Shown here: piece by piece, positions 11,405 to 28,643 of the stretch
Numbering within the stretch: position 1 is the first letter of the stretch
Layout of the letters: each line of letters begins with the position of its first letter
From: an uncultured Gemmatimonadales bacterium
GTDB taxonomy: Bacteria; Gemmatimonadota; Gemmatimonadetes; Gemmatimonadales; GWC2-71-9
Length of the DNA: 64,000 nt
Direction of reading: 5' to 3'
Assembly: GCA_963779755.1 (NCBI GenBank)
Contig: CAVZZO010000003.1
Coordinates: forward strand, 288,001-352,000
Position numbers and translations under genes: made by a program
The notes under the pieces: generated by a model
Seen by the model: only the letters and a program-made list of their open reading frames with translations
Told to the model about the DNA's origin: nothing
Database searches by the model: none

Positions 11405-13336
11405 ATGCCTACGTCTGTCGCAGGTTCTTCGTCCGCGCCCGCGATCGCGGCCACCCCCGCCACCACGCGCCGGCTTTCTGAGCATACCGTCGAGATCGTC
11501 TCCGATTCCGGCGAAGGCGCCCAGAAATGCGGCCAGATCTTCGGCGCTGTTTCGGCCAAGATGGGCAACGGGGTCTGGACGGTCGAGATCATCCCGGCGG
11601 AGATCCAGCCGCCGCCCCGGGTCCCGGAAGGGGCCAGCGGTATCCGGATCCGGTTCGGCACCGAGCCGGTGACCAACTGGGGCGACAATACCCGCCTGGT
11701 GGTGGCCTTCAACGAACAGGTACTCCTGGCCCGACACCGCCTGGGCGCGCTCGCGCCCGACGCCACCGTCCTGCTGGAGAACAAGTGGGCCAATCATCCG
11801 GATGACGATGTCCGCCGTGCCTGGGAATCGGCACTGCAGGAGCTGGCGGCGCATTCCTATCGCATCGTTCCCGTGCCCATGGACGAGCAGTGTCTGACCA
11901 TCGTGGATAATCCGCGCAAGGGCAAGAACATGTTTGCCCTGGGGATGCTGGCCTGGATCTACCAGCGCGACCTCGACCGGATCCGCGACCAGATCGCCTA
12001 CGCCTTCCGCAAGAAGTCCGAGGCGGTCTACACCCAGAACGTCGCCCTGCTGGAGCTGGGGTACGCCTGGGCGGGCGAGCATCTGGATTTCCGCTATGAG
12101 GTCCCGGCCGCGCCGGCGACGGAACCGATGGTAGTGATGAACGGCAACGAGGCGGCCGGCATGGGCGCCATCGCGGCGGGGTTCGAACTGTGCGCCATGT
12201 ACCCCATTACCCCGGCCACCTCCGCCTCGCATTACCTGGGCGAAGTCTTCCATCGTTTCGGCGGGGTGCTGCATCAGGCGGAGGACGAGATCGCCGCGGT
12301 GGGCGTGGCCATCGGCGCCTCCTATGCGGGCAAAGTCGCCCTCACCATCACCAGCGGACCGGGGCTGGCGCTCAAGACCGAGTTCCTGGGCCTCGCGGTC
12401 ATGGCGGAAATCCCGCTGGTGGTGCTGGACGTCCAGCGGGGCGGCCCCAGCACGGGGCTCCCCACCAAGGTGGAGCAGTCGGATCTGCTGGCGGTGCTGT
12501 TCGGCCAGCCGGGCGATGCGCCCAAGGTGGTGCTGGCTCCGGCCACCATCGAAGAGTGCTTCCACGTGATGCTCACCGCCCGCCGGCTGGCCGAGGCGTT
12601 CCGCTGTGTCGTAGTGGTGCTGTCGGATGCCAATCTCGCCACCGGCGTCCAGCCCTTCCCCCGGCCAGTCCCGGAGGAACGCTGGCTGCGTACGTCGCTG
12701 GACCTGGGGCCGGTGCCGGAGGGGCAGAAGGCCTACGACTGGAATCCCGAGACGGGCCTCTCGCGCCGGGTCATCCCGGGCCAGGCCAACGGGATGTACA
12801 CCCTGACGGGCCTGGCGCACGACAGCCGCAGCAAGGTGGCCTACAGCAGCGGCATTCACCAGCACAGCTCCGCCATGCGCAGCCGGAAACTGGCCACCCT
12901 GCAGCAGACCCTGCTGCCCCCGGCGGTCAATGGCGACGACTCGGGCGATCTCCTGCTGGTGGGCTGGGGAAGCACCAAGGGAGCCATCGAGGAAGCCGTG
13001 GCCCGGGCGCGTGCCGGCGGGCTCCGCGTGAGCTCGGTGCACCTCACCTTCCTCTCGCCGCTGCAGCCCGGACTGCGCGAGATCTTCGCCCGTTTCGGCC
13101 GGGTCTGCACCGTGGAGCTCAACTACAGCGACGACCCGTCGGCGCCCGGCATTACGCCGGAGAACCGCCGCATGGGCCAGCTCGCCTGGCTGCTGCGCGC
13201 CGCCACACTGGTGGACGTGGACTGCTGGACCCGTGTGCCAGGCGAGCCGCTGCGGCCGCAGGCCATTCTGGAAGCCATTCAGGCCCGGCTCGATGGAGCC
13301 GGGGCCGCCTCTCCGATGACGCGAGGTGCCAAGTGA
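11405..13336 (+). CDS. korA: 2-oxoacid:ferredoxin oxidoreductase subunit alpha (gamma-alpha fusion, KorA type)
   Basis: DSGEGAQ, KNMFALG, MNGNEA, YPITPA, QAEDEIAA, TSGPG, DVQRGGPSTGLPTK, GWGST. Confidence 0.92.
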   Translation: MPTSVAGSSSAPAIAATPATTRRLSEHTVEIVSDSGEGAQKCGQIFGAVSAKMGNGVWTVEIIPAEIQPPPRVPEGASGIRIRFGTEPVTNWGDNTRLVVAFNEQVLLARHRLGALAPDATVLLENKWANHPDDDVRRAWESALQELAAHSYRIVPVPMDEQCLTIVDNPRKGKNMFALGMLAWIYQRDLDRIRDQIAYAFRKKSEAVYTQNVALLELGYAWAGEHLDFRYEVPAAPATEPMVVMNGNEAAGMGAIAAGFELCAMYPITPATSASHYLGEVFHRFGGVLHQAEDEIAAVGVAIGASYAGKVALTITSGPGLALKTEFLGLAVMAEIPLVVLDVQRGGPSTGLPTKVEQSDLLAVLFGQPGDAPKVVLAPATIEECFHVMLTARRLAEAFRCVVVVLSDANLATGVQPFPRPVPEERWLRTSLDLGPVPEGQKAYDWNPETGLSRRVIPGQANGMYTLTGLAHDSRSKVAYSSGIHQHSSAMRSRKLATLQQTLLPPAVNGDDSGDLLLVGWGSTKGAIEEAVARARAGGLRVSSVHLTFLSPLQPGLREIFARFGRVCTVELNYSDDPSAPGITPENRRMGQLAWLLRAATLVDVDCWTRVPGEPLRPQAILEAIQARLDGAGAASPMTRGAK

Positions 13337-14295
13337 ACGCCGGCGAGATGCTCTGCCCGCTGCTCCATGCCGTTGCCGAGCCGGGCGATCTCTCCTTCGA
13401 GATGTCGGATTACGAGGGCGCGCAGGCGCGCTGGTGCCCGGGCTGCGGCGATCATTCGGTCCTCACCGCGGTCGAGAAGCTGCTGGTGAGCGAACAGCTC
13501 CGCCCGGAACAGACGGTGTTCGTCTCCGGGATCGGCTGCTCCAGCCGCTTTCCCCACTACCTCAAGACCTACGGTTTCCACGGCATTCACGGCCGCGCGC
13601 TGCCGGTGGCAACCGGCATCAAGCTGCACCGGCCCGACCTCACCGTCTTCGTGGTGATGGGCGACGGCGATTGCACCTCGATCGGCGCGGGGCACTGGCT
13701 GCATGCGCTGCGCTATAACGTGCGCATGGTCGCCATGGTGCTCGACAACGCCATCTACGGCCTGACCAAGAACCAGACCTCGCCCACGACGCCGCAGGGG
13801 CATCCCAGCAACACGCAGCCCGGGGGCAGCTATCTCCCTGCCCTGAACCCCATCTCCATGGCGCTGGGGGTAAGCAACGCATCCTTCGTGGCCCAGACGG
13901 CGGAGTGGGTGCCGGCGCACCTGCTGGCCACGCTGCGCGCGGCCTATCACCATGAGGGGCTTGCCTTCGTGCGGATACTGCAGCGCTGCCCGGTGTTCAC
14001 TCCGGGCATCTTCCAGCAGGCGGTCCAGAAGCCCGACCTGATCGAGCTTCTGGTGCACGACGACGGTGTCGCCGCCCCGGAGCTGGAGAAGACCTACAAG
14101 AACCGCATCACACATGACCCGCACGACCTGGATCAGGCCCGCCGGCTGGCCGAGATGTCGGACCGGGTACGGCTCGGCGTGTTCTACCGGGACGAGTCGC
14201 GTGCCCGGTACGACCTCATCCGGCAGGTGCCGGCCCGCACGGCGGCCGACCGGATCTCCCTGCTCAACGCGGAGCTCGACAAGTATGCCGTCTGA
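13333..14295 (+). CDS. korB: 2-oxoacid:ferredoxin oxidoreductase subunit beta (TPP-binding)
   Basis: WCPGCGD, SGIGCSSR, HGRALP, GDGD..., DNAIYGLTKNQ, QRCP. GTGA overlap with korA. Confidence 0.92.
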   Translation: MNAGEMLCPLLHAVAEPGDLSFEMSDYEGAQARWCPGCGDHSVLTAVEKLLVSEQLRPEQTVFVSGIGCSSRFPHYLKTYGFHGIHGRALPVATGIKLHRPDLTVFVVMGDGDCTSIGAGHWLHALRYNVRMVAMVLDNAIYGLTKNQTSPTTPQGHPSNTQPGGSYLPALNPISMALGVSNASFVAQTAEWVPAHLLATLRAAYHHEGLAFVRILQRCPVFTPGIFQQAVQKPDLIELLVHDDGVAAPELEKTYKNRITHDPHDLDQARRLAEMSDRVRLGVFYRDESRARYDLIRQVPARTAADRISLLNAELDKYAV

Positions 14296-15295
14296 TCCTC
14301 GACTGGAGCAGGTCCAGGCCCTGGTGGCCGATGCCCAGGTGCGCTGCCGGGCGGCCATTGCCGCCGCGGCCGACCAGGTGGGCGACTATCTCGACAGCCA
14401 TCGGCAGCCGGCCGCGGGCGGCGGCGAGCCGCCGACGCGGCTGGGCCGGTTCGCGGCGGGGCGGATCAGCGAAAGCCGGTTCGCCTCGCTTTTCGAGCCC
14501 GACACGGTAGCCCCCGGGAGGCTGGAGCCCATGGAACGCGCCGCGGCGGTGCTGGCCGACGTCCTGGCGCAGGACGGCACCGCCGCGCAGATCCTGCCCC
14601 GGGGCGGCGATCTGGCGCGCCTGGTGGAAGACCAGCTGGCACGAACGGGCCGCGCCTTCGGCGCCGCGCTGCTGTTCCAGGCCGCCCGGGCCGGGGCATA
14701 CCGCCCCGATGAGCACGACCGGCTCCTGGAGGGGCTGCCCTTCAGACGCTGGAACCGGAGCGAGCGGCAGCTGGCACCGCCGATGGTCGTCCTGCTGGAC
14801 GGCGCCGATGCCCGGGCCGAAGGCCTGGCGCCGTTCCTCGACGGCGGCATCAAGATCGTCCTCGTCCTGGAGCCGCCCGTCTCACCGGCGCCGCTGGTCC
14901 GGCTGATCACTCCCGGCGTGTTCGTCATGCAGACGTCCAATCCAGCCGACCTCTCCCGGCTGATGAGCTTCGGCGGCCCCGGGATCGCGGCCCTGGTGCC
15001 CGAGGGCGCCGCCCGGTTCGTACACGATCCGGCCGCTGGCGGCGCTCTGGGTCAGCGGCTCGAGATTCAGCAGTTGCCGCCGGAGCCGCCCCGGGCACCG
15101 CTGGGAGGGCGCAGCGCCTGGCAGCAGCGGGAGGAGTTGACCCAGCTGGCGCTGCTGGCCGATCTCGCAGCGGCCCCGCCTGCCCTGGCACCCACCGGCG
15201 CACCGGCGGGCGGCGCGCAGTCGGTCGATGCCCTGGCGTCCTGGCTGCTGGCACAGGCCGGGCTGTCCCCCGCTCCGGGAGCACCGGCGACATGA
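14285..15295 (+). CDS. Uncharacterised protein OrfX, degenerate paralogue of the PFOR TPP-binding (beta) domain
   Basis: ATG overlaps korB and the stop overlaps rnfB (ATGA). Manual alignment to the downstream PFOR C-terminal domain is described in findings. Confidence 0.8.
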   Translation: MPSDPRLEQVQALVADAQVRCRAAIAAAADQVGDYLDSHRQPAAGGGEPPTRLGRFAAGRISESRFASLFEPDTVAPGRLEPMERAAAVLADVLAQDGTAAQILPRGGDLARLVEDQLARTGRAFGAALLFQAARAGAYRPDEHDRLLEGLPFRRWNRSERQLAPPMVVLLDGADARAEGLAPFLDGGIKIVLVLEPPVSPAPLVRLITPGVFVMQTSNPADLSRLMSFGGPGIAALVPEGAARFVHDPAAGGALGQRLEIQQLPPEPPRAPLGGRSAWQQREELTQLALLADLAAAPPALAPTGAPAGGAQSVDALASWLLAQAGLSPAPGAPAT

Positions 15296-16122
15296 TCTTC
15301 GCCGCCGTCGCCATCCTGGGCAGCGTCGGTCTCGTCTTCGGGACCCTCATCGCCCTCGCCAACCGGAAGCTCAAGGTCTGGGAAGACCCGCGTATCGACG
15401 TGGTGAACGGCCTGCTGCCCAACGCCAACTGCGGCGCCTGCGGCGAGCCGGGCTGCCGCGCCTTTGCCGAAAAGCTGGTGGCGGGTGCGGTAAAGCCGGC
15501 GGACTGCAATGTGGCCACCGATGAGGCGCGGGCGCAGATCGCGAGCTACCTGGGGGTGGATGCGGGCCAGGCGGTGCGCATCGGCGCGCGTCTGCTCTGC
15601 GCCGGCGGTGCCGCGGTGGCCCGCCAGCAGGCGGAGTACCGCGGGCTGCCCACCTGTGCCGCCGCGGCGGCCGTGGGCGGCGGCGGCAAGGGCTGCACCT
15701 GGGGCTGCCTGGGGCTGGCCGACTGCGTCCGTGCGTGCACCTTCGACGCCATGCGCATGAGCGGCGACGGCCTCCCGCTCATCGACCTGGAGAAGTGCAC
15801 CGCCTGCGGCGACTGCGTCACCGCCTGCCCCAAGGACCTGCTCGCCATCATGCCGCTGGATCAGCACCTGCTGGTGCGGTGCCGCAATCTCATGGCCGGC
15901 GACGACATTCTGGAAGACTGCAAGGTGGCCTGTACCACGTGCGGCAAGTGCGTGGCCGACGCGGCGGCGGGACTCATCAGCATCAGCAGCGGCGTCGCGG
16001 TGGTGGACTACCGGCTCAACGCCATGGCCGACGCGGCGGCAATCGCGCGCTGTCCGACCGGGGCTATCGTCTGGCTGGAGACGGGCTCCACCGCCTCCCT
16101 ACTCGTCGGGAGCACAACGTGA
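15292..16122 (+). CDS. rnfB: Rnf electron transport complex subunit B
   Basis: N-terminal TM, LPNANCGACGEPGC Fe-S domain, CTWGCLGLADCVRAC, CTACGDCVTACP. Confidence 0.92.
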   Translation: MIFAAVAILGSVGLVFGTLIALANRKLKVWEDPRIDVVNGLLPNANCGACGEPGCRAFAEKLVAGAVKPADCNVATDEARAQIASYLGVDAGQAVRIGARLLCAGGAAVARQQAEYRGLPTCAAAAAVGGGGKGCTWGCLGLADCVRACTFDAMRMSGDGLPLIDLEKCTACGDCVTACPKDLLAIMPLDQHLLVRCRNLMAGDDILEDCKVACTTCGKCVADAAAGLISISSGVAVVDYRLNAMADAAAIARCPTGAIVWLETGSTASLLVGSTT

Positions 16123-19100
16123 AACTCATGAGCACGTCGGCCAAGCCGGCGCCCAGGACCGAGCCCGCTGCCCCCCCGTTTCCCGGGACGCTCGAGGCGA
16201 TGGATGGCAGCGCCGCGGTGGTCGCCATGGAAACCCGCGCCAGCGAAGCGGCCGGCGCCTATCCCATCACCCCCTCCACCCAGATGGGCGAGGGGTGGGC
16301 CGCCGCGGTGGCCGACGGCACCCGGAACGTGAACGGCCGCCGGCTGATCTTCTTCGAGCCGGAAGGTGAGCATGCCGCCGCCGCGGTCACCGCGGGGCTC
16401 AGCATGACCGGGCTGCGGGCCGCCAACTTCTCCAGCGGCCAGGGCGTAGTGTACATGCACGAGTCGCTCTACCCCGCCGTGGGCAAGCGGCTCACCTATG
16501 TGCTCAACGTTGCCGCCCGGGCGCTCACCAAGCAGGCGCTCAACGTGCATGCCGGGCACGACGATTACCACGCGGTGGACGACACCGGCTTCTTTCAGCT
16601 CTTCGCCAAGGATGTCCAGGAGGTCGCCGACCTCAACCTGATTGCGCACCGCATCGCCGAGTTGTCGCTCAACCCCGGCATCCTGGCGCAGGACGGCTTC
16701 CTCACCAGCCACGTGCTGGAATCGCTGCGGGTGCCGGAGCCGGAGCTGATCCGCCGCTACCTGGGCGACCCCTCCGATCGCATTCCCTCGCCCACCCCGG
16801 CCCAACGGATGGTGTTCGGCGACGAGCGGCGGCGGATTCCCGAGCTGTTCGACGTGGACTACCCCGCCATGCTGGGCGTGGTCCAGAACCAGGACAGCTA
16901 CGCCCAGGGGGTGGCGGCGCAGCGGCCGTTCTACTTCGACCATGTAGCCGAGCTGTCCGACCGGGCGTTTGCCGAATTCGCGGCGCTCACCGGGCGCGCC
17001 TACGCGCGTTGCGGGGCCTACCGGCTGGAAGACGCGCAGTTCGTCATCGCCGGCCAGGGCAGCGTCATCCCCAACGCCGAGGCGATAGCCGACTGGTTGC
17101 GGGACACGCGGGGCCTGAAGGTAGGGGTGCTGAACCTCACCATGTTCCGTCCCTTCCCGGCCGACCTGGTGACCCGGCTGCTGGCGGGCAAGCGGGGTGT
17201 CGTGGTGCTGGAGCGCACCGACCAGCCCCTGGCGATCGACCCGCCGCTCCTGCGCGAGATCCGCGCGGCCATGAGCCAGGCGCTGGAGAACGGGCGCGAG
17301 GCGCAGTCGGCGCCGGTCCCCTACCCCGGGCTGGCCGGGCTGCAGCCGCACCAGGTACCCACCTTCTACAGTGGGTGTTTCGGGCTGGGCAGCAGGGATC
17401 TGCAGCCGGGCGACCTGGTGGCGGCAATAGAGAACATGCTGCCCGGGGGCCGCGGGCGGCGGCAGTTCTACCTCGGCATCGACTTCATCCGGACCGGCAC
17501 CCGTCTCCCCAAGCTGCAGATCTGGCAGGAACAGCTGCTGGAGCACTATCCCCAGCTGAAGGATCTGGCCTTGCCGTCCGCGGGCGACATCAACCTCATG
17601 TCGCCCAGTTCGGTCTCGCTGCGGATCCACTCGGTGGGCGGCTGGGGCGCGATCACCACGGGCAAGAACCTTTCGCTCACCGTGTTCGAGCTGCTCGGGA
17701 TGCACATCAAGGCCAACCCGAAATACGGCTCGGAAAAGAAGGGCCAGCCCACCACCTTCTACGCCACCTTCTCGCATGATCCGATCCGGCCCAACTGCGA
17801 ACTACGGCATGTGGACGTGGTGCTCTCGCCCGATCCCAACGTGTTCCGCCACTCCAATCCGCTGGCGGGCCTCTGCGATGGCGGTGTCTTCGTCATCCAG
17901 AGCGATCAGGCACCCGAGGATTTCTGGCGCGGCCTGCCGGCCTTTGCCCGGCACGACATCATGGAGCGGAAGATCCGGGTCTATACGCTGGACGCGTTTG
18001 CCATCGCGGCCAGCGAGGCCTCGGACGCCGAGCTGCGCTACCGGATGCAGGGCATCGCCTTCATGGGTGCCTTCTTCGCCGCCTCGCCGCTGCGGGAGCG
18101 GGAGGGCCTGAGCGAAGACGCGCTCTACGAGGGCATCCGCTCGCAGCTCACCCGGAAGTTTGGCTCCAAGGGCCAGCGGGTGGTGGAGGACAACCTGCGG
18201 GTGATCCGCCGCGGCGCGGCCGAGCTGCACGCCGTCACGGCGGCGGAGATTGCCGACGAGGCGGCGCCCGGCAGCGTTCCCGTCATGCCCGAGCTACTCC
18301 GCGCCGACAGCGCGGAACCGGGCATCGGCAATCAGGGCCGCTTCTGGGAGCAGGTGTGCTCGCTCTGGAAACTGGGGCAGGACGGGATCGCCGATCCCTT
18401 CGCGGCGATCAGCGCCATTCCGGCCGCGACCAGCGCGGTGCGGGACATGACCGACGTGCGCATGGAGGTGCCCCGGTTCATCGCCGAGAACTGCACCGGC
18501 TGCGCCCAGTGCTGGACCCAGTGCCCCGATGCCGCGATCCCCGGGCTGGTGACCGACCCCGAGGAGCTGCTGGCCGCCGCGGTGGCCCAGGCGGGCAGCC
18601 AGACCCCCATGGAGCGGCTGAAGCCCATCCTCAAGCCCCTGGGCCGCGAGGTGCGCCGGCTGCTGGGCGCCGGCCCCTTCACCTCCTTCGCCGATACGGT
18701 GGATCAGGCGGTGCAGGCGTTGAGCCCCAAGCTGGGGCTGGACCAGGCCAAACAGCAGGCGCTCGCCGCCGAAGTCGCGGCGGTCCGGACGGTGGTGGAA
18801 CGCTTCCCGCTGGCCCGGACGGCGGCCTTCTGGGACAACGCCGAGCGCAAGCAGAAGGGGTCGGGCGGGCTGCTGTCCATTACCATCAATCCGGAAGCCT
18901 GCAAAGGCTGCAACATCTGCGTGGATGTGTGCCCCGATGACGCCCTGGTCGCGGTGCGGCAGGACGAGGCGATGGTCTCCGAGCTGCGGACCAACTGGGC
19001 CTTCTGGCAGCGCCTGCCCGATACCCCCGACCGGTTCATCAACGTGCCGGATCTGGAACAGGGCATCGGGGTTCTCCCCACCCTGCTGCTGAAGAAAGGG

Positions 19101-21182: not shown

Positions 21183-22525
21183 GCCGCCTCTGGCGCGGCG
21201 CCGGCGCCTTCGGGTTCCAGCACGGGGTCCATCCCCCGGAATCCAAGGAGCTGACGGCCCACCTGCCTATCCGGCGCATGCCGTTCCCGGACGAGGTCGT
21301 GTTGCCGCTGCGGCAGCACGCGGGCAAGCCGGCGCGCCCGGTGGTGCAGAAGGGCGACCGGGTGGAACGGGGCGACACGCTGGCGCTGGCCGACGGGTAC
21401 ATCTCCTCGCCGGTCCACGCCTCGGCCTCCGGCACGGTGGCGGCCGTGGACTGGTGGCCGCACCCCGACGGATCGATGGCGCCGGCGGTTCGTATCGCGG
21501 TGGAGCGCTGGAGCAGCCAGCTGGCACGGCCCCGGCTGGTTCCGGACTGGCACGGGCTGACCCACGAGCAGGTGATCAAGGCGGTCCAGGATGCCGGCGT
21601 GGTGGGCCTGGGCGGTGCCGCCTTCCCCACTCACGTCAAGCTGGCACCGCCCAAGGACGCGGTGATCGATACGATCATCGTGAACGGCGCGGAATGCGAG
21701 CCCTATCTCACGACCGACCACCGGATCATGGTGGAGTACCCCGACCGGGTGCACTTCGGCGTGCGGATCATGCTCCACGCCCTGGGCGTGAAGCGGGCGA
21801 TCATCGGAGTGGAACGCAACAAACCCGATGCCATCGAGGCCCTGGAGCGCACCCGGCCGCAGGATCTCGACATCACCATCCTGCCGCTCACGGTGAAATA
21901 CCCGCAGGGCGCGGAGAAGATGCTGATCAAGTCGGTGCTCGACCGGGAAGTGCCCTCGGGCAAGCTGCCGGCCAGCGCGGGCGTCATCGTGCAGAACGTA
22001 GGGTCGGTGGCTACGCTGGCGGAGGTGTTCGAGACCGGCCTGCCGCTGGTCGAGCGGATCGTGACGGTGAGCGGGCACGGGGTGCGGCGGCCGTCCAATC
22101 TGATCGTCCCGGTGGGGACCAAGGTCTCCGACCTGCTGGCGTTCTGCGGTGGGCTCACCGACGATGCAGCCGAGGTGCTCTTCGGCGGCCCCATGATGGG
22201 CATCTCGCAGCCGCGTCTGGAGGCGCCGGTTCTGAAGGGCACCACCGGGGTGGTGGTCCTGAGCGAGGCGGAGGTCCGGAGCCGCCGCAGCTATCCCTGC
22301 ATCCACTGCGGACGCTGCCTCGACGCCTGCCCCATGTTTCTCAATCCCTCGCTGCTGGGCGACCTGGCCCGGACCGCCAACTACGAGGAAATGGCCGAGC
22401 TGCACCTGTCCGACTGCATGCTGTGCGGATCGTGCAGCTACGTCTGCCCATCCAACATCCCGCTGGCTCAGCTGTTCCAGTCGAGCAAGGTGGCGCTGCG
22501 GCGCCTCCAGGCGGCTGCCCCGTGA
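21155..22525 (+). CDS. rnfC: Rnf complex subunit C (NADH/FMN-binding)
   Basis: GVHPPE.K, PVHASASG, GVVGLGGAAFPT, NGAECEPYLTTD, YPQGAEK, GGPMMG, two CxxCxxCxxxCP. Confidence 0.95.
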   Translation: MAEAGAGLLSRLWRGAGAFGFQHGVHPPESKELTAHLPIRRMPFPDEVVLPLRQHAGKPARPVVQKGDRVERGDTLALADGYISSPVHASASGTVAAVDWWPHPDGSMAPAVRIAVERWSSQLARPRLVPDWHGLTHEQVIKAVQDAGVVGLGGAAFPTHVKLAPPKDAVIDTIIVNGAECEPYLTTDHRIMVEYPDRVHFGVRIMLHALGVKRAIIGVERNKPDAIEALERTRPQDLDITILPLTVKYPQGAEKMLIKSVLDREVPSGKLPASAGVIVQNVGSVATLAEVFETGLPLVERIVTVSGHGVRRPSNLIVPVGTKVSDLLAFCGGLTDDAAEVLFGGPMMGISQPRLEAPVLKGTTGVVVLSEAEVRSRRSYPCIHCGRCLDACPMFLNPSLLGDLARTANYEEMAELHLSDCMLCGSCSYVCPSNIPLAQLFQSSKVALRRLQAAAP

Positions 22526-23532
22526 GCGCCGACGTCCGGTCCCTGCTGCTGCAGGCCTCGCCCCATCTCAAGGGACGGGACAGCACGCCCCGCATCATGT
22601 GGAACGTGGTGGGGAGTCTGCTCCCGATCGTGGCCGCCTCGGCGTACTTCTTCGGCCCCAGCGCGCTGCTGGTGCTGGCCGCGTCGGTGCTGGGCGCGCT
22701 GGCCACCGAGCGGCTCTTCGGCCGGGGCGGCACTCTGGCCGACGGCTCCGCCATGATCACCGGGCTGTTGCTGGGCCTCACCCTGCCGGCCGGCATGCCG
22801 CTCTGGATGGTGGTGCTGGGCGCCGCGTTCGCCATCGGGTTCGGCAAGCTGCTCTTCGGCGGCCTGGGCTACAACGTCTTCAATCCGGCACTGCTGGGCC
22901 GCGCTTTTCTCCAGGCCGCCTTCCCCGTGGCCATCACCACCTGGCCGGCGGCGGGCGGCTCCTGGTGGGCGCTCCGGGGCGACAACTTCGCGCTCCCGCT
23001 CATGAGCCCCAGGCTCACCGATGCCGTAACCTCCGCGACGCCGCTCGGCGCCATGAAGTTCGAGCACCACGGCACGGCGCTCTCCCACCTGCTGCTGGGG
23101 ACCACGGGCGGCTCGCTGGGCGAGACGGCGGGCCTGCTGATCCTGCTCTGCGGCGCCTGGCTGGCCTGGCAGGGCTATCTCAACTGGCGGATTCCGGCAG
23201 GGATCCTGGCCACGGTCGCGGCGGCAAGCGGCCTCCTGCACACGCTGGCACCGGCGAAGTACCCGACGCCGCTCTTCATGCTCTTCTCCGGCGGCCTCAT
23301 TCTGGGCACGGTCTTCATGGCCACCGACATGGTCACCGCGCCGGTGACCAACGCGGGGCGCTGGATCTTCGCCGCGGGCATCGGTGCCCTGGTGGTGATC
23401 ATCCGTATCTGGGGCGGACTGCCGGAAGGGGTCATGTACGCGATTCTGCTGATGAACGCCTTTGTGCCGTTCATCAACCGGGCGACACAGCCGCGGGTCT
23501 TCGGAACCGGGCGGGTCAAGGTGGCCGCATGA
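22522..23532 (+). CDS. rnfD: Rnf complex subunit D
   Basis: SPH, DGSA.ITGLLL, FGGLGYNVFNPA, FMN site TSATPL, GSLGET, FMATD.VT.P. Confidence 0.95.
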   Translation: MSADVRSLLLQASPHLKGRDSTPRIMWNVVGSLLPIVAASAYFFGPSALLVLAASVLGALATERLFGRGGTLADGSAMITGLLLGLTLPAGMPLWMVVLGAAFAIGFGKLLFGGLGYNVFNPALLGRAFLQAAFPVAITTWPAAGGSWWALRGDNFALPLMSPRLTDAVTSATPLGAMKFEHHGTALSHLLLGTTGGSLGETAGLLILLCGAWLAWQGYLNWRIPAGILATVAAASGLLHTLAPAKYPTPLFMLFSGGLILGTVFMATDMVTAPVTNAGRWIFAAGIGALVVIIRIWGGLPEGVMYAILLMNAFVPFINRATQPRVFGTGRVKVAA

Positions 23533-24182
23533 GCGCCGGATCCCTTCCCGTGGTGGACACCCCGCAGGTCCCCAGTTGGCGGCTGCTGGCGACGCTGGGC
23601 GGCGCGGGCGCGCTGGCCGGGCTACTCATCGTGCTGGTGTACGGCTGGACCCGGCCGCGGATCGAGGCACACCGCGCGGCAGTGCTGCGCGACGCCATCG
23701 AGGAGGTGCTGCACGCGCCGGCCCGGGCCGACACGCTCTTTGTGCTGAACGGCGCCCTGGTGGCCGACCCGGGCAACGCCGCCCGGGAAAAGCTGGACCG
23801 GGTCTACCGGGGGTACGACGACGCGGGCCGCCCCACGGGGTATGCCATCGTGGCCTCGGAACCGGGCTTCCAGGACCAGGTGGAGCTGATCTTCGGCTAC
23901 AACCCGGCCACCCACGAAATCCTCGGCATGAAAATCCTCGAAAGCAAGGAAACACCGGGGCTGGGCGACCGGATCGAACGGCCGGCGTTCGGAGCGCAGT
24001 TCGCGGGCCGCACCGCACCGGTCACCGGGGTGAAGGGCTCCGCCCCGCCGGACGACCGGAGCGCGGTCGTGATGATCACCGGGGCCACCATCTCCTCGCG
24101 CACGGTGATCCGTGAAATCAATAACGCGGTGGCGCACTGGCAGCCGCTGATCGAGGCCTATCAGGCCGGGGCACAGCCATGA
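23529..24182 (+). CDS. rnfG: Rnf complex subunit G (FMN-binding)
   Basis: N-terminal TM, ETPGLG, flavinylation motif ITGATISS. Confidence 0.93.
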   Translation: MSAGSLPVVDTPQVPSWRLLATLGGAGALAGLLIVLVYGWTRPRIEAHRAAVLRDAIEEVLHAPARADTLFVLNGALVADPGNAAREKLDRVYRGYDDAGRPTGYAIVASEPGFQDQVELIFGYNPATHEILGMKILESKETPGLGDRIERPAFGAQFAGRTAPVTGVKGSAPPDDRSAVVMITGATISSRTVIREINNAVAHWQPLIEAYQAGAQP

Positions 24183-24931
24183 CCGATTCGTCCCCTCAGC
24201 CGCTCTCCTGCCACACGGTCCCGGCGCCCGGCGCCACGACGTCGGTGAGCGCGCGGGAAGACCTGCTCAAGGGCATCTGGCGGGACAACCCGGTACTGGT
24301 CCAGGTGCTGGGGCTCTGCCCCACCCTCGCGGTGACCAACAGCGTGGCCAACGCGCTGGCCATGGGCATCGCGACGCTCTTCGTGCTGGTGGGCTCGAGC
24401 TTCCTGGTATCGAGCCTGCGCAAGCTGATCCCCAACGAGGTCCGTATCACCAGCTACGTCCTGATCATCGCGACCTTCGTGACGGTGGCGGACATGGGAC
24501 TGCAGGCGGCCGTGCCCGACATCCACAAGGCGCTGGGGGCCTTCATCGCCCTCATCGTGGTCAACTGCATCATCCTGGGGCGCCAGGAAGCGTTCTCGTC
24601 GCGGAATACCATCGGGCGCTCGGTGCTCGACGCGCTGGGCATGGGCGCCGGATTCATGCTGACGCTGCTGCTCATGGGCGGCATCCGTGAGGTGATCGGA
24701 AACGGCACCTTCCTGGGCCATCCGCTGTTCGGCCCCCACTACGAGCCCTGGGTGGTGATGATCCTGCCGCCGGGCGGGTTCCTGACCCTGGGCGTGATTC
24801 TGCTGGGGATCGCCTGGGTCCATGAGCGGCGCAACCGTCGCGCGGCCGCGCGGGCGGTTCTGGCCGAGGCTCTGTCCGCGCCCGGGGCCCCGGGGCCGCA
24901 GCCGGCGCGCGAGCCGGCGGGAGCGATCTGA
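24179..24931 (+). CDS. rnfE: Rnf complex subunit E
   Basis: NPVLVQVLGLCPTLAVT, LIVVNCIILGR, REVIG, LPPGGF. Confidence 0.95.
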   Translation: MTDSSPQPLSCHTVPAPGATTSVSAREDLLKGIWRDNPVLVQVLGLCPTLAVTNSVANALAMGIATLFVLVGSSFLVSSLRKLIPNEVRITSYVLIIATFVTVADMGLQAAVPDIHKALGAFIALIVVNCIILGRQEAFSSRNTIGRSVLDALGMGAGFMLTLLLMGGIREVIGNGTFLGHPLFGPHYEPWVVMILPPGGFLTLGVILLGIAWVHERRNRRAAARAVLAEALSAPGAPGPQPAREPAGAI

Positions 24932-25509
24932 TGGGCGACCTGCTGTGGATCTTCGTCAGCGCCATGCTGGTGAACAACTTCACCCTGGTGCTGTTCCTGG
25001 GGCTCTGCCCCTTCCTGGGCGTCACCAAGAAGCTGGGGCCGGCCCTGCGGCTGGGCGCGGCGAACCTGTTCGTCCTGCTGCTCACCTCGCTCAGCGTCAC
25101 CTTCCTCAACACCTTCGTGCTGCGCTCGGCGCCCTACCTGCGGCTCATCGCGTTCATCGTGGTGATCGCCTCGCTGGTGCAGATCGTTGAAATGACGGTC
25201 AAGAAGTTCAGCCCCACGCTGTTCCGGGAGCTGGGAATCTATCTGCCGCTCATCACCACCAATTGCGCCATCCTGGCCCTGGCCATCTTCCAGACCAACC
25301 GGGCCTACAGCGTGCTGCAGGGCGTGGCGTTTGCGCTGGGAGCGGGCCTGGGGCTGACGCTCGCCCTGACGCTCATGGCGTCGATCCGCGAACGGCTGGA
25401 CTTCGCCGACGTGCCGGCCATCGCCAAGGGCGTCGGGCTGGTGCTGATCGTAGCGGGCAGCCTCTCGCTCGCCTTCATGGGCTTCGCCGGCCTGGGGAGC
25501 GGATCATGA
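24931..25509 (+). CDS. rnfA: Rnf complex subunit A
   Basis: VNNF.L..FLGLCPFLG, LGIYLPLITTNCA, IRERL, LAFMGFAG. Confidence 0.95.
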   Translation: MGDLLWIFVSAMLVNNFTLVLFLGLCPFLGVTKKLGPALRLGAANLFVLLLTSLSVTFLNTFVLRSAPYLRLIAFIVVIASLVQIVEMTVKKFSPTLFRELGIYLPLITTNCAILALAIFQTNRAYSVLQGVAFALGAGLGLTLALTLMASIRERLDFADVPAIAKGVGLVLIVAGSLSLAFMGFAGLGSGS

Positions 25510-25652
25510 GCCTGGCCACCCTGCTGACGGCGGCGCTGGGCGGCGCCGTCTTCTTCGTGCTCTTCGCCCTGCTGCCCCGACGCCGGAAGTGCTCCAGCGA
25601 CTGCGGCAGCTGTACCACGGCCTGCTCCAGCAGGCAAGGACAACCCCGATGA
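25506..25652 (+). CDS. Small TM plus Cys-rich protein (48 aa; FeoB-associated Cys-rich / NqrM-like architecture)
   Basis: MSLATLLTAALGGAVFFVLFALLPRRRKCSSDCGSCTTACSSRQGQPR, with ATGA overlaps to both rnfA and apbE. Confidence 0.8.
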   Translation: MSLATLLTAALGGAVFFVLFALLPRRRKCSSDCGSCTTACSSRQGQPR

Positions 25653-26653
25653 CTGCCGATTCCCCGCGGCGTTTCGACCGCCGCGAATTCATCGCGCTGG
25701 GCCTCGGCGCCTTTGTGGTCGCCTCGCTGCCGCTGGCGGCGCGGCGCGGCGCCCGGATCCGGCGCCCCGGGCTGGCCCGGCGCACCATCCCCGTCATGGG
25801 AACGATCGCCGAGCTGGCGGTGCTCGACCCCGATCCGCGCGGCGCCCAGGCGGCGCTGGACGCGGCGGTCGCCGAGTTGCGACGGGTCGAGGCCGCCTTC
25901 ACCAGGTTCGACGACCGATCGGACATCGGGCGGGCCAATCTCGGGGCCGCGCGGGAGGCCGTCGCGGTCTCTCCGGCCACCGCGTATGTCGTCGCCGAGG
26001 CGCTGCGCTGGGCGGCGGGAACATCGGGGTCCTACGATCCCGCCATCGGCGGCGCGATCGCGCTGTGGGATGTGACCCACCGGCACGAGCCGCCACCGGA
26101 GCGGCAGGTCTCCCGCTTTGCCGCCCGACGGCTGTACCACACGGTGGAGGTAGGGCGCGGGAAGGGAGGCCCGGTGCTGCGCTACCACGATCCCGACGCC
26201 CGGCTCGATCTGGGCGGCATCGCCAAGGGTTACGGGGTAGACCGGGCGGTGGAGGTATTGCGGCAGCATGGCATCACCCAGGCGCTGGTGGACGTGGGGG
26301 GCGACCTCTACGCACTGGGGACGGCGCCGGGCGGCGATCCCTGGGAAATCGGCATCCGCAATCCCGACGATTCCGAAGGCCTGATCGGCACGCTGAAGGT
26401 CGCCGACGCCGCCGTGGCAACCTCCGGGACCTACCTGCAGTACTTCCGGTATCGCGGCCGGCGCTATCACCACCTGATCGATCCGGTCACGGGATCGCCG
26501 CGCCAGACGCCGGAGGAGAGCCTCACAATCCGAGCCGACCGCTGCATGGAGGCCGATGTGGCCGCCACCGCGTTGTTCGGCCTGTCCCGGCCCGAGGCCG
26601 GCGCCCTGCTGGGCCGCCTGGCACCGGGGGCGGAGGTGGCGCGGATCGCGTGA
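25649..26653 (+). CDS. apbE: FAD:protein FMN transferase ApbE with twin-arginine signal
   Basis: MGT, DPAIG, DLGGIAKGYGVD, GGD, W.IGI.NP, VATSG.Y, HHLIDP.TG, AD..AT. N-terminal DRREFI motif. Confidence 0.93.
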   Translation: MTADSPRRFDRREFIALGLGAFVVASLPLAARRGARIRRPGLARRTIPVMGTIAELAVLDPDPRGAQAALDAAVAELRRVEAAFTRFDDRSDIGRANLGAAREAVAVSPATAYVVAEALRWAAGTSGSYDPAIGGAIALWDVTHRHEPPPERQVSRFAARRLYHTVEVGRGKGGPVLRYHDPDARLDLGGIAKGYGVDRAVEVLRQHGITQALVDVGGDLYALGTAPGGDPWEIGIRNPDDSEGLIGTLKVADAAVATSGTYLQYFRYRGRRYHHLIDPVTGSPRQTPEESLTIRADRCMEADVAATALFGLSRPEAGALLGRLAPGAEVARIA

Positions 26654-26701
26654 GGAAGGCTGGAAACCCGCACCATGGTCGTCGCGACCGGGGAGGGAGC
26701 G

Positions 26702-27061
26702 ATGAAAGTTCAGAAGATCTTCTGCTCGGCCTGCGATCGTGAAGTCAGCATCGTGCTGACCGCCGAGCCGATACACGACGGGCAGGCCAATCTGCCGGAC
26801 GCCGATTTTGTCTGCCTGGAGATCGGAGACACCTGCACCGGCTCCCTGTGCCCCCTGTTCGCGCTGCCACCGGAGGCGATGAAGGCGCGCCTGGCCCGGT
26901 CGGGGTTCGATACCGGCGGCCTGCGCCATCTGCGGGCGCACTGCGACGGCTGCGACCGGGAGACGGACATGGTGGTACTGAACCGCGAGTACTGCCACTG
27001 CATGGAATGCCACGCCACCAATCACTGGCGGGTGGCGGACCCCACCACACTCCCCGGCTGA
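26702..27061 (+). CDS. Cys-rich hypothetical protein (10 Cys, duplicated CxxCDRE motif)
   Basis: CSACDREV ... CLEIGDTCTGSLCP ... CDGCDRET ... CHCMECH, with RBS GGAGGGAG. Confidence 0.75.
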   Translation: MKVQKIFCSACDREVSIVLTAEPIHDGQANLPDADFVCLEIGDTCTGSLCPLFALPPEAMKARLARSGFDTGGLRHLRAHCDGCDRETDMVVLNREYCHCMECHATNHWRVADPTTLPG

Positions 27062-27083
27062 TCCGGGCTACCGCGAGGCGCTG

Positions 27084-28643
27084 ATGTTCCGTTTGGCCGC
27101 CGCCGTGCTTCCTCTGGCCGCCGCCGTCGAGGGCGGGGGCCATGCCATGCAGTCCACCACCGATGCCTTCTCCCAGTCGATCGTGGCCGCCATCATCGTG
27201 GCGGTCTTCGTGTCGCTGGCGCTGGAAAAGGTGCACCGGGTGCTGGTCGTGATCGGGGCGGTTGCCCTCATGTGGGCCATCACCTATCTCACGCCCTTCC
27301 ATCTGATAACGTTCGAAGGGGCGCAGACGGCGCTGGATTTCAACGTCCTCTTCCTGCTGGCGTCCATGATGGCGGTGGTCGGCGTGCTGAAGAGCACCGG
27401 CGTCTTCGAATGGGGTGTGGCCCGCATGCTGAACCGGGCCAACGGCGATCCCTACCTGATCCTGGTGTTGCTGCTCTGGTTCACCGCCATCCTCTCGGCG
27501 CTGTGCGACAACGTGACCACGGTGATCTTCGTGGCGCCCATGGCCCTGCAGATGGCACGCGCGGTCCGGGTGAAACCGGTGGCCTTCCTGCTGCCGGTGG
27601 TCATGGCCTCGAATATCGGCGGCACCGCCACCCTGATCGGCGACCCGCCCAACATCATGATCGGGTCGGGTGCGGGGCTCACGTTCCTTCAGTTCATCCT
27701 GGCCCTGGCGGCGCCGGTCGCCGTCATGATGTTTCTGCTGCCATGGTTTTCCGGGAAGTACTTCCACAAGTCACTGGAAGCCGCCCGGCAGAACGCGGGG
27801 GATACCACCATGGCGGTTCCGGCCATCACCGATCCGCTGCTGCTTCGGTGGTCGCTCTGGATCGGCGGCTTCATCCTGCTCGGCTTCTTTACCCATGGGC
27901 TCACCGGCATGCCCACCTCGGTTCCTGCCACAATCGGCGCCGGGGCATTGCTGGTGGTGCAGGACATACTCTACCTCCGCCGCTGGCAGCCCACGGAAGA
28001 AGAGCGACAGCACGGCCTGCTCCGGATCATCGAGAAAGAGATCGAGTGGCCGACGCTCAGCTTCTTCGGCTTTCTCTTCATCGCGGTAGGCGCGGCGGTG
28101 CAGACCGGCCTCATCGACACGCTGGCCCGTGGCCTGGGCCACGTGATCCTCGCCGGTGGGGGCGGCATGGGGCTGCGCGGCACCGGAATCCTGCTCTTCG
28201 CCGCGCTGCTCATCGTGTGGGTGAGTGGTATCGCCAGCGCCATCGTGGACAACATCCCCTTCGTGGCCGTCATGATTCCCATCATTCACCGGCTGGCGGG
28301 GCAGCTCCCGGGAGAGACCGGCGTGCTCTGGTGGGCGCTGGCGCTGGGCGCCTGTCTGGGCGGGAACGGCACCGCGGTGGGCGCATCGGCCAACGTGACG
28401 GTGATCGGGATGGCGGAACGGATGGGCGTGCACATCAGCTTCCGGGAGTTCACCCGCTTCGGCGCGTCGGTGACGGCGGTGACCCTGACCATTGCTTCCG
28501 TGTTCATCGCTTCCTACATCTATCTCGGCAGCAGGATGGCGATGGTGGCCTGGCTGGGTATCGTCGCGCTGGTCCTGCTGCTGAAGGCGATCTCGCGCAT
28601 GGCCCGGCGGCCCGAGCTGCGCACCGCGCCGGTGGCGCGATAA
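27084..28643 (+). CDS. ArsB/NhaD/SLC13 (IT superfamily) ion transporter
   Basis: SALCDNVTT, SNIGGTATLIGDPPNIMIG, EW.TL.FF, SAIVDNIPF, LGACLGGNGT.VGASAN. Confidence 0.9.
   Translation: MFRLAAAVLPLAAAVEGGGHAMQSTTDAFSQSIVAAIIVAVFVSLALEKVHRVLVVIGAVALMWAITYLTPFHLITFEGAQTALDFNVLFLLASMMAVVGVLKSTGVFEWGVARMLNRANGDPYLILVLLLWFTAILSALCDNVTTVIFVAPMALQMARAVRVKPVAFLLPVVMASNIGGTATLIGDPPNIMIGSGAGLTFLQFILALAAPVAVMMFLLPWFSGKYFHKSLEAARQNAGDTTMAVPAITDPLLLRWSLWIGGFILLGFFTHGLTGMPTSVPATIGAGALLVVQDILYLRRWQPTEEERQHGLLRIIEKEIEWPTLSFFGFLFIAVGAAVQTGLIDTLARGLGHVILAGGGGMGLRGTGILLFAALLIVWVSGIASAIVDNIPFVAVMIPIIHRLAGQLPGETGVLWWALALGACLGGNGTAVGASANVTVIGMAERMGVHISFREFTRFGASVTAVTLTIASVFIASYIYLGSRMAMVAWLGIVALVLLLKAISRMARRPELRTAPVAR

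Follow-up and report, generated by a model that had tools for sequence, protein, structure and literature searches.

Why should the gene for a pyruvate:ferredoxin oxidoreductase (PFOR) lie among rnf genes, and why should it be accompanied by korA and korB, encoding a second 2-oxoacid:ferredoxin oxidoreductase (OFOR), and by a further frame, orfX? The question is raised by a stretch of 64,000 nucleotides, here called the window, from an uncultured Gemmatimonadales bacterium (GenBank assembly GCA_963779755.1, contig CAVZZO010000003.1, positions 288,001 to 352,000 of the forward strand), in which twelve open frames, korA-korB-orfX-rnfB-PFOR-rnfC-D-G-E-A-peptide-apbE, extend from the korA start at 11405 to the apbE end at 26653. 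The junctions, in order, are -4, -11, -4, -4, -28, -4, -4, -4, -1, -4 and -4 nt, which reproduces every overlap of stop and start codons listed for the twelve genes in the original prediction, made from this DNA alone; the PFOR gene lies between rnfB and rnfC, as had also been proposed, coordinates and Pfam and NCBIfam families being in agreement. All six Rnf subunits (A, B, C, D, E and G) are encoded, and cofactor motifs are intact in these and in both OFORs. The operon is real and conserved and is built of known parts. Its two most telling features, a PFOR-tethered ferredoxin and the nature of OrfX, were absent from the original prediction. New here are the origin of OrfX as a dead paralogue of PFOR domain VI, its predicted docking to KorA, complementary pairs of dead PFOR-like genes in Acidobacteriota and a form of KorAB linked to NfnAB-like genes.

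The long PFOR and OrfX

The PFOR of the window has the domain order I-II-III-V-VI with insertions, after which come a long C-terminal helix, a linker and, at the end, a ferredoxin with one cluster. Its closest structures are 6CIN and 1B0P, homodimeric one-subunit PFORs (NifJ, TIGR02176) with which it has in common the order of domains, YPITP, the thiamine pyrophosphate (TPP)/Mg motif and all twelve cluster ligands. It differs from the NifJ type by ~500 extra residues (1687 aa, compared with the usual ~1170-1230 aa), by helical insertions in domains V and VI and by the tail helix, linker and fourth cluster, and scores 400 bits against a TIGR02176 cut-off of 911. YPITP, VAAR, both domain V cluster motifs, GACMGC, GGDGA, YSNTGG and the remaining proximal cysteines are retained. 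We class the enzyme in a long clade of its own, presumably with PFOR-like function. The substrate is probably pyruvate, with YPITP, VAAR and YSNTGG kept, but substrate boundaries among PFORs are called ill-defined in the review consulted in part (PMC13768988). A model of residues 986-1540 gave a long helical hairpin and a terminal helix of 53 residues. The Ala/Pro/Ser/Thr linker that follows is unconserved and varies from 60 to 114 residues among 50 homologues, and Cys 1617, 1620, 1623 and 1659 of the tail ferredoxin are invariant in 58 sequences. In two sets of loci, described below, the full-length PFORs number 49 and 52. Catalytic motifs are kept in 48-49 of the first set and 50-52 of the second, and the tail ferredoxin in 48 and 52, the single exception being truncated by a contig end.

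A further 113 long PFORs were compared; in 11 of them the active-site motifs are altered and both domain V motifs are kept. Changed substrate-site motifs with all cluster ligands kept were noted in P0262-P0265, P0279, P0290, P0294, P0305, P0306, L087 and L088, of which the last two lie inside OrfX operons; one altered protein of this group is named as Rokubacteria. New specificity and early decay are alternative explanations.

OrfX has no match in Pfam, NCBIfam or the sequences of solved structures. Likeness to the PFOR was first hinted at by pairwise comparison. With hhalign, OrfX aligned to PFOR domain VI at 79% (E 1.6e-5), nine control profiles giving E 0.0067 or worse, and a repeat run gave 68%; conversely, a domain VI profile detects 53 of 83 OrfX sequences at E < 0.001, and both fold searches placed PFOR chains on top, weakly. 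The clearest evidence for paralogy comes from four loci in which the gene behind korB encodes a longer form of ~490 aa, with 25-29% identity to PFOR residues 1152-1542 (E 1e-29 to 1e-37) and with a match to OrfX as well. OrfX itself has a 27-residue deletion spanning the TPP/Mg loop and has lost the cluster cysteines, and among 261 homologues YxNTGG is present in none and GDG in 5, with a mean of 1.5 Cys. Thus OrfX has neither the GDG...N TPP/Mg motif nor the proximal cluster cysteines of an active OFOR beta domain. It is homologous to PFOR domain VI, including its lineage-specific helices, and is a catalytically dead paralogue of it. An ATPase-like identity, taken from ESM Atlas rows below 0.8, was rejected. 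Longer fused forms were not found among 8000 candidates scored, which covered 698-2000 aa only and provide weak evidence. As a lead only, an ESM Atlas search with the long form returned unnamed clusters in Myxococcota and Pseudomonadota. One protein, P0167, combines OrfX with the PFOR tail ferredoxin; it was met only once, on a contig of 3.7 kb, and may be chimeric. In a quick tree of domain VI (52 rows), dead copies fall into several long-branched clades with an open base, and we therefore propose neither one common origin nor a sequence of events.

KorA has the alpha-chain architecture III-I-II and KorB is a domain VI with TPP and cluster motifs, as found in two-subunit 2-oxoglutarate:ferredoxin oxidoreductases (OGOR) and OFORs (M. 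marinus 6N2N, S. tokodaii 5B46 and 5B48), which they resemble in architecture, motifs and single cluster. They differ in that a third gene follows, for a subunit that is derived from PFOR, is dead and is predicted to dock on the alpha chain. KorB carries the proximal [4Fe-4S] motif and no ferredoxin domain. Its GCSSR is the same as in 6N2N, the Sulfolobus enzymes having GCSGK, and we take the Arg to have a role in 2-oxoglutarate specificity; the KorAB substrate is probably 2-oxoglutarate, judged by family and this one motif.

Docking of OrfX was modelled with KorA 240-632, which omits the N-terminal domain, KorB and OrfX. The complex scored 0.72 compared with 0.00 for the best of three controls, and the score fell to 0.00 when KorA was substituted; the score mark is reached by 116 of 157 solved pairs and 2 of 215 mismatched pairs. 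Runs have at least 38% of contacts in common with a partner pLDDT of at least 72, and place OrfX 52-70 on KorA 377-398, 450-452, 498-507 and 548-554. OrfX is thus predicted to bind KorA, a prediction that the model supports rather than shows. By its secondary-structure pattern, OrfX 52-70 would be the tip of a hairpin insertion that is absent from solved PFORs, which makes recall of a solved complex less likely. Ten OrfX positions within 53-66 are 78-100% conserved in the 261 homologues, and a counterpart of the motif is visible in the four long forms while none scores in 114 long PFORs. The KorAs of the operons have the contacted stretches in common and four stand-alone KorAs differ there, a pattern that kinship alone could explain.

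Conservation of the operon and its variants

Conservation was followed in loci from one genome per species, 190 of which encode OrfX; the best 80, chosen by OrfX and mostly kin, were inspected, adjacency being counted only where the contig permits. Most are from Gemmatimonadota, with others from Planctomycetota, Acidobacteriota, Rokubacteria and Acidimicrobiia. Gene order across genomes had been named as a check on the original prediction and was kept wherever testable: korA-korB in 73/73, korB-orfX in 79/79, orfX-rnfB in 78/78, rnfB-PFOR in 68/69, PFOR-rnfC in 51/51 and rnfE-rnfA in 33/34. The arrangement is not due to chance. Upstream of the operon korA, by ~600 nt, L053, L055 and L060 have a second, distant korAB pair.

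A dead paralogue follows korB directly not only in all of these OrfX loci but also in 4/4 loci with long forms and 9/10 with Acidobacteriota forms. Locus L165 has korAB and the long form jointly inverted relative to the rnf genes, and no separate dead paralogue was found in korAB-less loci, including that of Persicobacter with 10 kb upstream. The dead paralogue belongs with KorAB. The genes behind korB are cut off in L127, L128, L158, L167 and L200; in two of these (L167:2-1189 and L200:3-749, minus strand) the gene starts as a degenerate PFOR domain I-II without YPITP and ends at the locus edge.

A second set of loci consisted of the best 80 of 528 metagenome loci ranked by likeness to the PFOR of Persicobacter. 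Other orders are observed here, namely rnfB-PFOR-rnfCDGEA without korAB and PFOR-rnfCDGEA-gap-rnfB. The stable core is the PFOR immediately 5' of rnfC. The full cluster is present in the cultured Gemmatirosa kalamazoonensis and the korAB-less form in Persicobacter psychrovividus, where an NAD(P)-binding oxidoreductase (PF00175; L124:20202-21056) lies between rnfA and rnfB; a gap of like size between rnfA and rnfB recurs in many low-GC loci.

Distribution is uneven. Named relatives put the host in Gemmatimonadota. OrfX matches were found in 14 of 61 relatives, and a profile of the long-PFOR domain VI matched 31 of 201 Gemmatimonadota genomes sampled evenly over the phylum, one being a weaker match of a different type. 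The cluster is therefore patchy and not general in the phylum, and its presence throughout Gemmatimonadota was rejected.

In Acidobacteriota, 23 of 201 sampled genomes matched and 20 regions from 16 of these were inspected. One locus (L219) has the same layout as the window. In seven others (L207, L209, L210, L212, L213, L215 and L223), two dead PFOR-like genes flank rnfB. In the first, directly preceded by korB in 6/7, all catalytic motifs are gone and the tail ferredoxin remains; the second lies between rnfB and rnfC and has lost both catalytic motifs and tail, keeping both domain V motifs in 5/7, and the dead proteins in the PFOR position are 1200-1500 residues long. Three loci (L214:9051-16550, L216:9224-16875 and L218:9367-16924) encode a pair that we take to be NfnAB-like, followed by korA, korB and a dead domain VI with a tethered ferredoxin, and no rnfC match was found in these three genomes. 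The iron-sulfur parts, i.e. the domain V clusters and the tail ferredoxin, are complementary among the PFOR-like genes. When the PFOR has the ferredoxin, the korB-linked paralogue is without one (260/261 OrfX proteins and 4/4 long forms), and in the 7 loci whose PFOR-position protein is dead and has no tail, as in the 3 that have no such protein, the ferredoxin is on the paralogue (10/10). A second clade of long PFORs of ~1560-1600 aa was also noted (L217, L220-L222, L224 and L225), with motifs intact, no tail ferredoxin and no rnf gene nearby.

Proposed electron transfer to Rnf and competing explanations

Rnf, which couples the oxidation of ferredoxin by NAD+ to the export of Na+ or H+, is usually pictured as drawing on a free ferredoxin pool, and OFORs as enzymes with subunit numbers of one, two, four or five. 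The reading towards which we lean, if only modestly, is that the operon encodes a low-oxygen, 2-oxoacid-oxidising unit which acts alongside or instead of pyruvate dehydrogenase (PDH) and 2-oxoglutarate dehydrogenase (ODH) and feeds Rnf through a swinging ferredoxin. Judged by their motifs, the long PFOR and KorAB would turn 2-oxoacids, of which pyruvate and 2-oxoglutarate are the probable ones, oxidatively into acyl-CoA and CO2, and the anatomy suggests that electrons may leave through the ferredoxin of the PFOR tail, which would swing to RnfB. KorAB, having no ferredoxin domain of its own, could borrow the arm of the PFOR. OrfX is predicted to bind KorA by the conserved motif at its hairpin tip, residues 52-70, may also contact the PFOR through the helices common to both, and might thereby keep KorAB within reach of the ferredoxin arm and Rnf. 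NADH would then feed complex I and the oxidases, the cell gaining ion pumping which PDH and ODH forgo. We infer the sharing of the swinging ferredoxin, the attachment to Rnf and the oxidative direction.

The host genome has genes for PDH together with lipoyl synthase, for SucA and for complex I, three aa3-type and two other haem-copper family matches, a bd oxidase, a NapA-like enzyme, a formate dehydrogenase and a membrane NiFe hydrogenase; no match to acetate kinase was found in it. With PDH, SucA and oxidases also encoded, the operon is an addition to an oxygen-respiring chain. The operon as a replacement for ODH was rejected, as SucA matches occur in 60/61 kin, including all 14 carriers of the OrfX cluster. 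Genome context speaks for oxidative use at low oxygen with added ion pumping and against a citrate-lyase reverse cycle; reverse running would be compatible with it. Low-oxygen capacity in Gemmatimonadota is already in print (PMC9426454; PMC11651109, each consulted in part), and Rnf goes unmentioned in the main text of two phylum-wide genome papers (PMC9426454, PMC11316326).

Several observations weigh against this reading or parts of it. For the short OrfX, sequence and fold scores are each weak, the latter being Foldseek E 0.011 and Z 7.5 for VIA compared with 7.3 for helical bundles. The complex run used three chains and custom alignments, unlike its calibration, and omitted the KorA N-terminal domain, and in most of the ten paralogues from Acidobacteriota the docking motif is faint or escapes detection. 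The order breaks after rnfB in L017, and L210 has both dead paralogues but no korAB within 7 kb upstream and no domain V motifs. The host encodes a small free ferredoxin and a second korAB, and the NiFe hydrogenase tracks the cluster weakly among kin (8/14 carriers compared with 17/47 others). Three long PFORs with catalytic motifs (L208, L211, where the gene is split into two frames, and L226) stand in regions with no rnf gene, in three of the genomes that have two-dead-gene operons; a long PFOR therefore does not need an adjacent Rnf.

The operon could instead be a co-regulated ferredoxin regulon with no stable assembly on Rnf, the enzymes being soluble, OrfX a subunit of KorAB, and Rnf reached by free ferredoxin, which the genome encodes, or by transient visits of the tethered one. 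Gene order is shuffled elsewhere, as PFOR-rnfCDGEA-oxidoreductase-rnfB in Persicobacter and with korAB inverted or behind rnfB, KorAB with its paralogue exists without rnfC as long PFORs exist without rnf, and PFORs are loose in their choice of partner in vitro (PMC13768988, in the part consulted). We nevertheless regard this explanation as unlikely, since a dead PFOR of 1200-1500 residues retained between rnfB and rnfC, with both cluster motifs in 5/7, would be difficult to account for if it served neither structure nor wiring, and the PFOR directly precedes rnfC in all 51 testable OrfX loci. The enzymes might also run in reverse, ion-motive force and NADH driving the reduction of the tethered ferredoxin by Rnf so that acetyl-CoA and succinyl-CoA could be carboxylated, in acetate assimilation or in a citrate-synthase-based reverse cycle on H2. 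PDH and ODH already provide the oxidative direction, the hydrogenase adjoins a V/A-type ATPase, and both Rnf and OFORs are reversible (PMC12337175, consulted in part), yet we consider this quite improbable: 6/14 cluster-bearing kin have no hydrogenase match, the glycoside-uptake and amylase genes of the window are heterotroph-like, and the genome, 97% complete, has one match to the citrate synthase family PF00285, of full length, and no second match of the ATP citrate lyase type, the search having been made with this family and not with families specific to that lyase. The reverse tricarboxylic acid cycle through ATP citrate lyase, for which a search of the genome had been advised, is thereby not supported. 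The proposed OFOR-Rnf module is partly supported, by the conserved order, the intact cofactor motifs, the predicted OrfX-KorA link and the dead PFORs retained in rnf operons.

OrfX could alternatively be a regulator or oxygen-protection partner of KorAB, as a pseudoenzyme inhibitor or chaperone, rather than a bridge to PFOR and Rnf. It has no redox centre and KorA is its sole predicted contact, and the hosts respire oxygen, a protective domain being known in D. africanus PFOR (PMC13768988, consulted in part). Relatives of OrfX behind korB, however, bear a conserved ferredoxin (10/10 Acidobacteriota forms, and P0167), which points to electron delivery rather than inhibition and makes a purely regulatory role very improbable in our estimation.

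A broader form of the swinging-ferredoxin reading can be proposed tentatively, with more doubt than belief, in which the operon is a ferredoxin-based and so far undescribed counterpart of the PDH/ODH megacomplexes. A PFOR-derived scaffold would hold two OFORs and one swinging arm on Rnf or NfnAB, the dead paralogues would be exchangeable subunits that divide wire (domain V clusters) and arm (tail ferredoxin) between them, and low-potential electrons would be kept off the free ferredoxin pool in oxygen-respiring cells. In PDH and ODH complexes a carrier domain on a flexible Ala/Pro-rich arm shuttles between active sites. The operon would resemble them in substrates, products and a carrier on a flexible arm, a likeness of working only, as scaffold and carrier are not homologous and the arm here would carry electrons at ferredoxin potential that can feed an ion pump. 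If the swinging-ferredoxin reading is correct, it would add a type of OFOR that has its own ferredoxin arm, a family of pseudoenzyme subunits for KorAB and a direct channel from OFOR to Rnf in bacteria that abound in soil and sediment and respire oxygen as well, ~15% of the sampled Gemmatimonadota bearing the long PFOR domain.

The original prediction had allowed that the architecture might already be characterised. Its rnfB-PFOR-rnfC core is mentioned once in print, in a single sentence on the rnf2 cluster of the Solemya velum gill symbiont, whose PFOR genes lie between rnfB2 and rnfC2 (Dmytrenko et al. 2014, PMC4287430, consulted in part). As in the window, the order there is rnfBCDGEA with PFOR inside, and pyruvate was proposed as electron donor to Rnf; the description, by which alone the two are compared, comes without biochemistry, korAB, a dead paralogue or a tethered ferredoxin. 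A dead subunit of the OrfX type or a tethered ferredoxin was not found described in the literature, largely open-access main texts with supplements excluded. Interspersed kor, hdr-flx and rnf genes of tubeworm symbionts, proposed to form a complex, are a different system (PMC6315080, consulted in part). The M. marinus PFOR (Mmc1_1741/1742) was rejected as a characterised member, being presented with three clusters and without mention of Rnf in the part of PMC12337175 consulted; it too was compared by description only. The 2026 PFOR review, in its section 3, gives domains I-VII and no type like the long tethered PFOR, and the five-subunit PFOR's epsilon subunit, which matches none of the seven domains, is the one loose parallel to OrfX (PMC13768988, consulted in part). 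The Rnf complexes of Acetobacterium woodii (9ERI) and Clostridium tetanomorphum (7ZC6) have in common with the window six subunits, a polyferredoxin-type RnfB and the ion-binding residues of RnfA and RnfE; in these, however, ferredoxin is a separate substrate, whereas in the window it is fused to an operon-encoded OFOR and RnfB is short of one cluster motif.

Gene assignments, Rnf subunits and neighbouring genes

Gene families were assigned by Pfam and NCBIfam, TIGR cut-offs being applied to the window proteins. KorA, RnfC, RnfD and RnfE score above their cut-offs; for KorB, RnfB, RnfG and RnfA the best match is their own family, with scores slightly below.

Table 1. Genes of the operon and the two genes that follow it, in window positions.
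Feature	Position	Strand	Evidence
korA, 643 aa, alpha subunit of two-subunit OFOR	11405..13336	+	TIGR03710 517 bits, cut-off 483; YPITP, DVQR motifs
korB, 320 aa, beta subunit	13333..14295	+	Pfam TPP_enzyme_C, PFO_beta_C; WCPGCG, GIGCSSR, GDGD, DN motifs
orfX, 336 aa, catalytically dead PFOR domain VI paralogue	14285..15295	+	hhalign, fold searches, long intermediates
rnfB, 276 aa, polyferredoxin type	15292..16122	+	closest solved chains 9ERI_B, 7ZC6_B
Long single-chain PFOR-type enzyme, 1687 aa	16119..21182	+	Pfam POR_N, PFOR_II, POR, Fer4, TPP_enzyme_C, Fer4_13 (1613-1665)
rnfC, 456 aa	21155..22525	+	TIGR01945 527 bits, cut-off 246
rnfD, 336 aa	22522..23532	+	TIGR01946 above cut-off; SATP in sequence
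rnfG, 217 aa	23529..24182	+	TIGR01947 97 bits, cut-off 102; Pfam FMN_bind; TGAT in sequence
rnfE, 250 aa	24179..24931	+	TIGR01948 above cut-off
rnfA, 192 aa	24931..25509	+	TIGR01943 213 bits, cut-off 229
Cys-rich peptide, 48 aa, membrane-anchored	25506..25652	+	no Pfam/NCBIfam match
apbE flavin transferase, 334 aa	25649..26653	+	PF02424, E 1e-72
Cys-rich protein, ~119 aa, optional member	~26702..27061	+	no Pfam/NCBIfam family
CitMHS/ArsB/NhaD-type ion transporter, 519 aa	27084..28643	+	PF03600

The rnfC match is the only one in the whole genome. In the last ferredoxin domain of RnfB, alignment to 7ZC6_B shows the second cluster motif to be without its cysteines. The cluster cysteines of RnfA and RnfE are kept, together with the ion-site residues of A. 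woodii, which are named in the part of PMC11889175 consulted: by alignment to 9ERI, the positions of R67, L103, V106, N107 and E115 are conserved in RnfE and those of Q85, E88, Y105, P107, T110, T111 and N112 in RnfA. The RnfA residues are equally present in 8AHX and do not separate Na+ from H+. ApbE flavinylates RnfD and RnfG; SATP in RnfD is presumably the flavinylation motif, and we take TGAT in RnfG to be the corresponding motif. A peptide with a hydrophobic helix and a Cys cluster lies between rnfA and apbE in 9/9 loci inspected.

No sigma-70-type promoter was found for the operon, nor an FNR-like box in the 140 nt preceding korA, and terminator-like matches mostly fall within genes. The Cys-rich gene and the ion transporter noted earlier downstream of apbE are both present, the gaps being ~40-50 nt from apbE to the Cys-rich gene and 22 nt from there to the transporter, but the transporter is not conserved as part of the cluster. 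In the eight relatives whose sequence extends past apbE (L002-L009) none was found behind that gene, and it was rejected as a core operon member; its own relatives in L008, L076 and L082 are on the opposite strand or upstream. The ~119-aa Cys-rich protein follows apbE in 4 of these eight and closes the cluster in G. kalamazoonensis.

Elsewhere in the genome, the NiFe hydrogenase operon with its maturation genes stands back to back with the V/A-type ATPase operon (contig C3, 750000-770000 of genome G000). The c/K subunit of this ATPase has Gln and Glu-Thr at what we take to be the Na+ signature positions, and the F-type c subunit on contig C1 does not. The NapA-like molybdoenzyme (704 aa; G000:C1:719500-725500) lies in an operon with DsrO- and DsrP-like subunits, which are not the usual nap partners. 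Within the window, positions 37889-60734 hold a SusC/SusD locus with amylases, beta-galactosidase-like and alpha-galactosidase-like hydrolases and a sodium/solute symporter.

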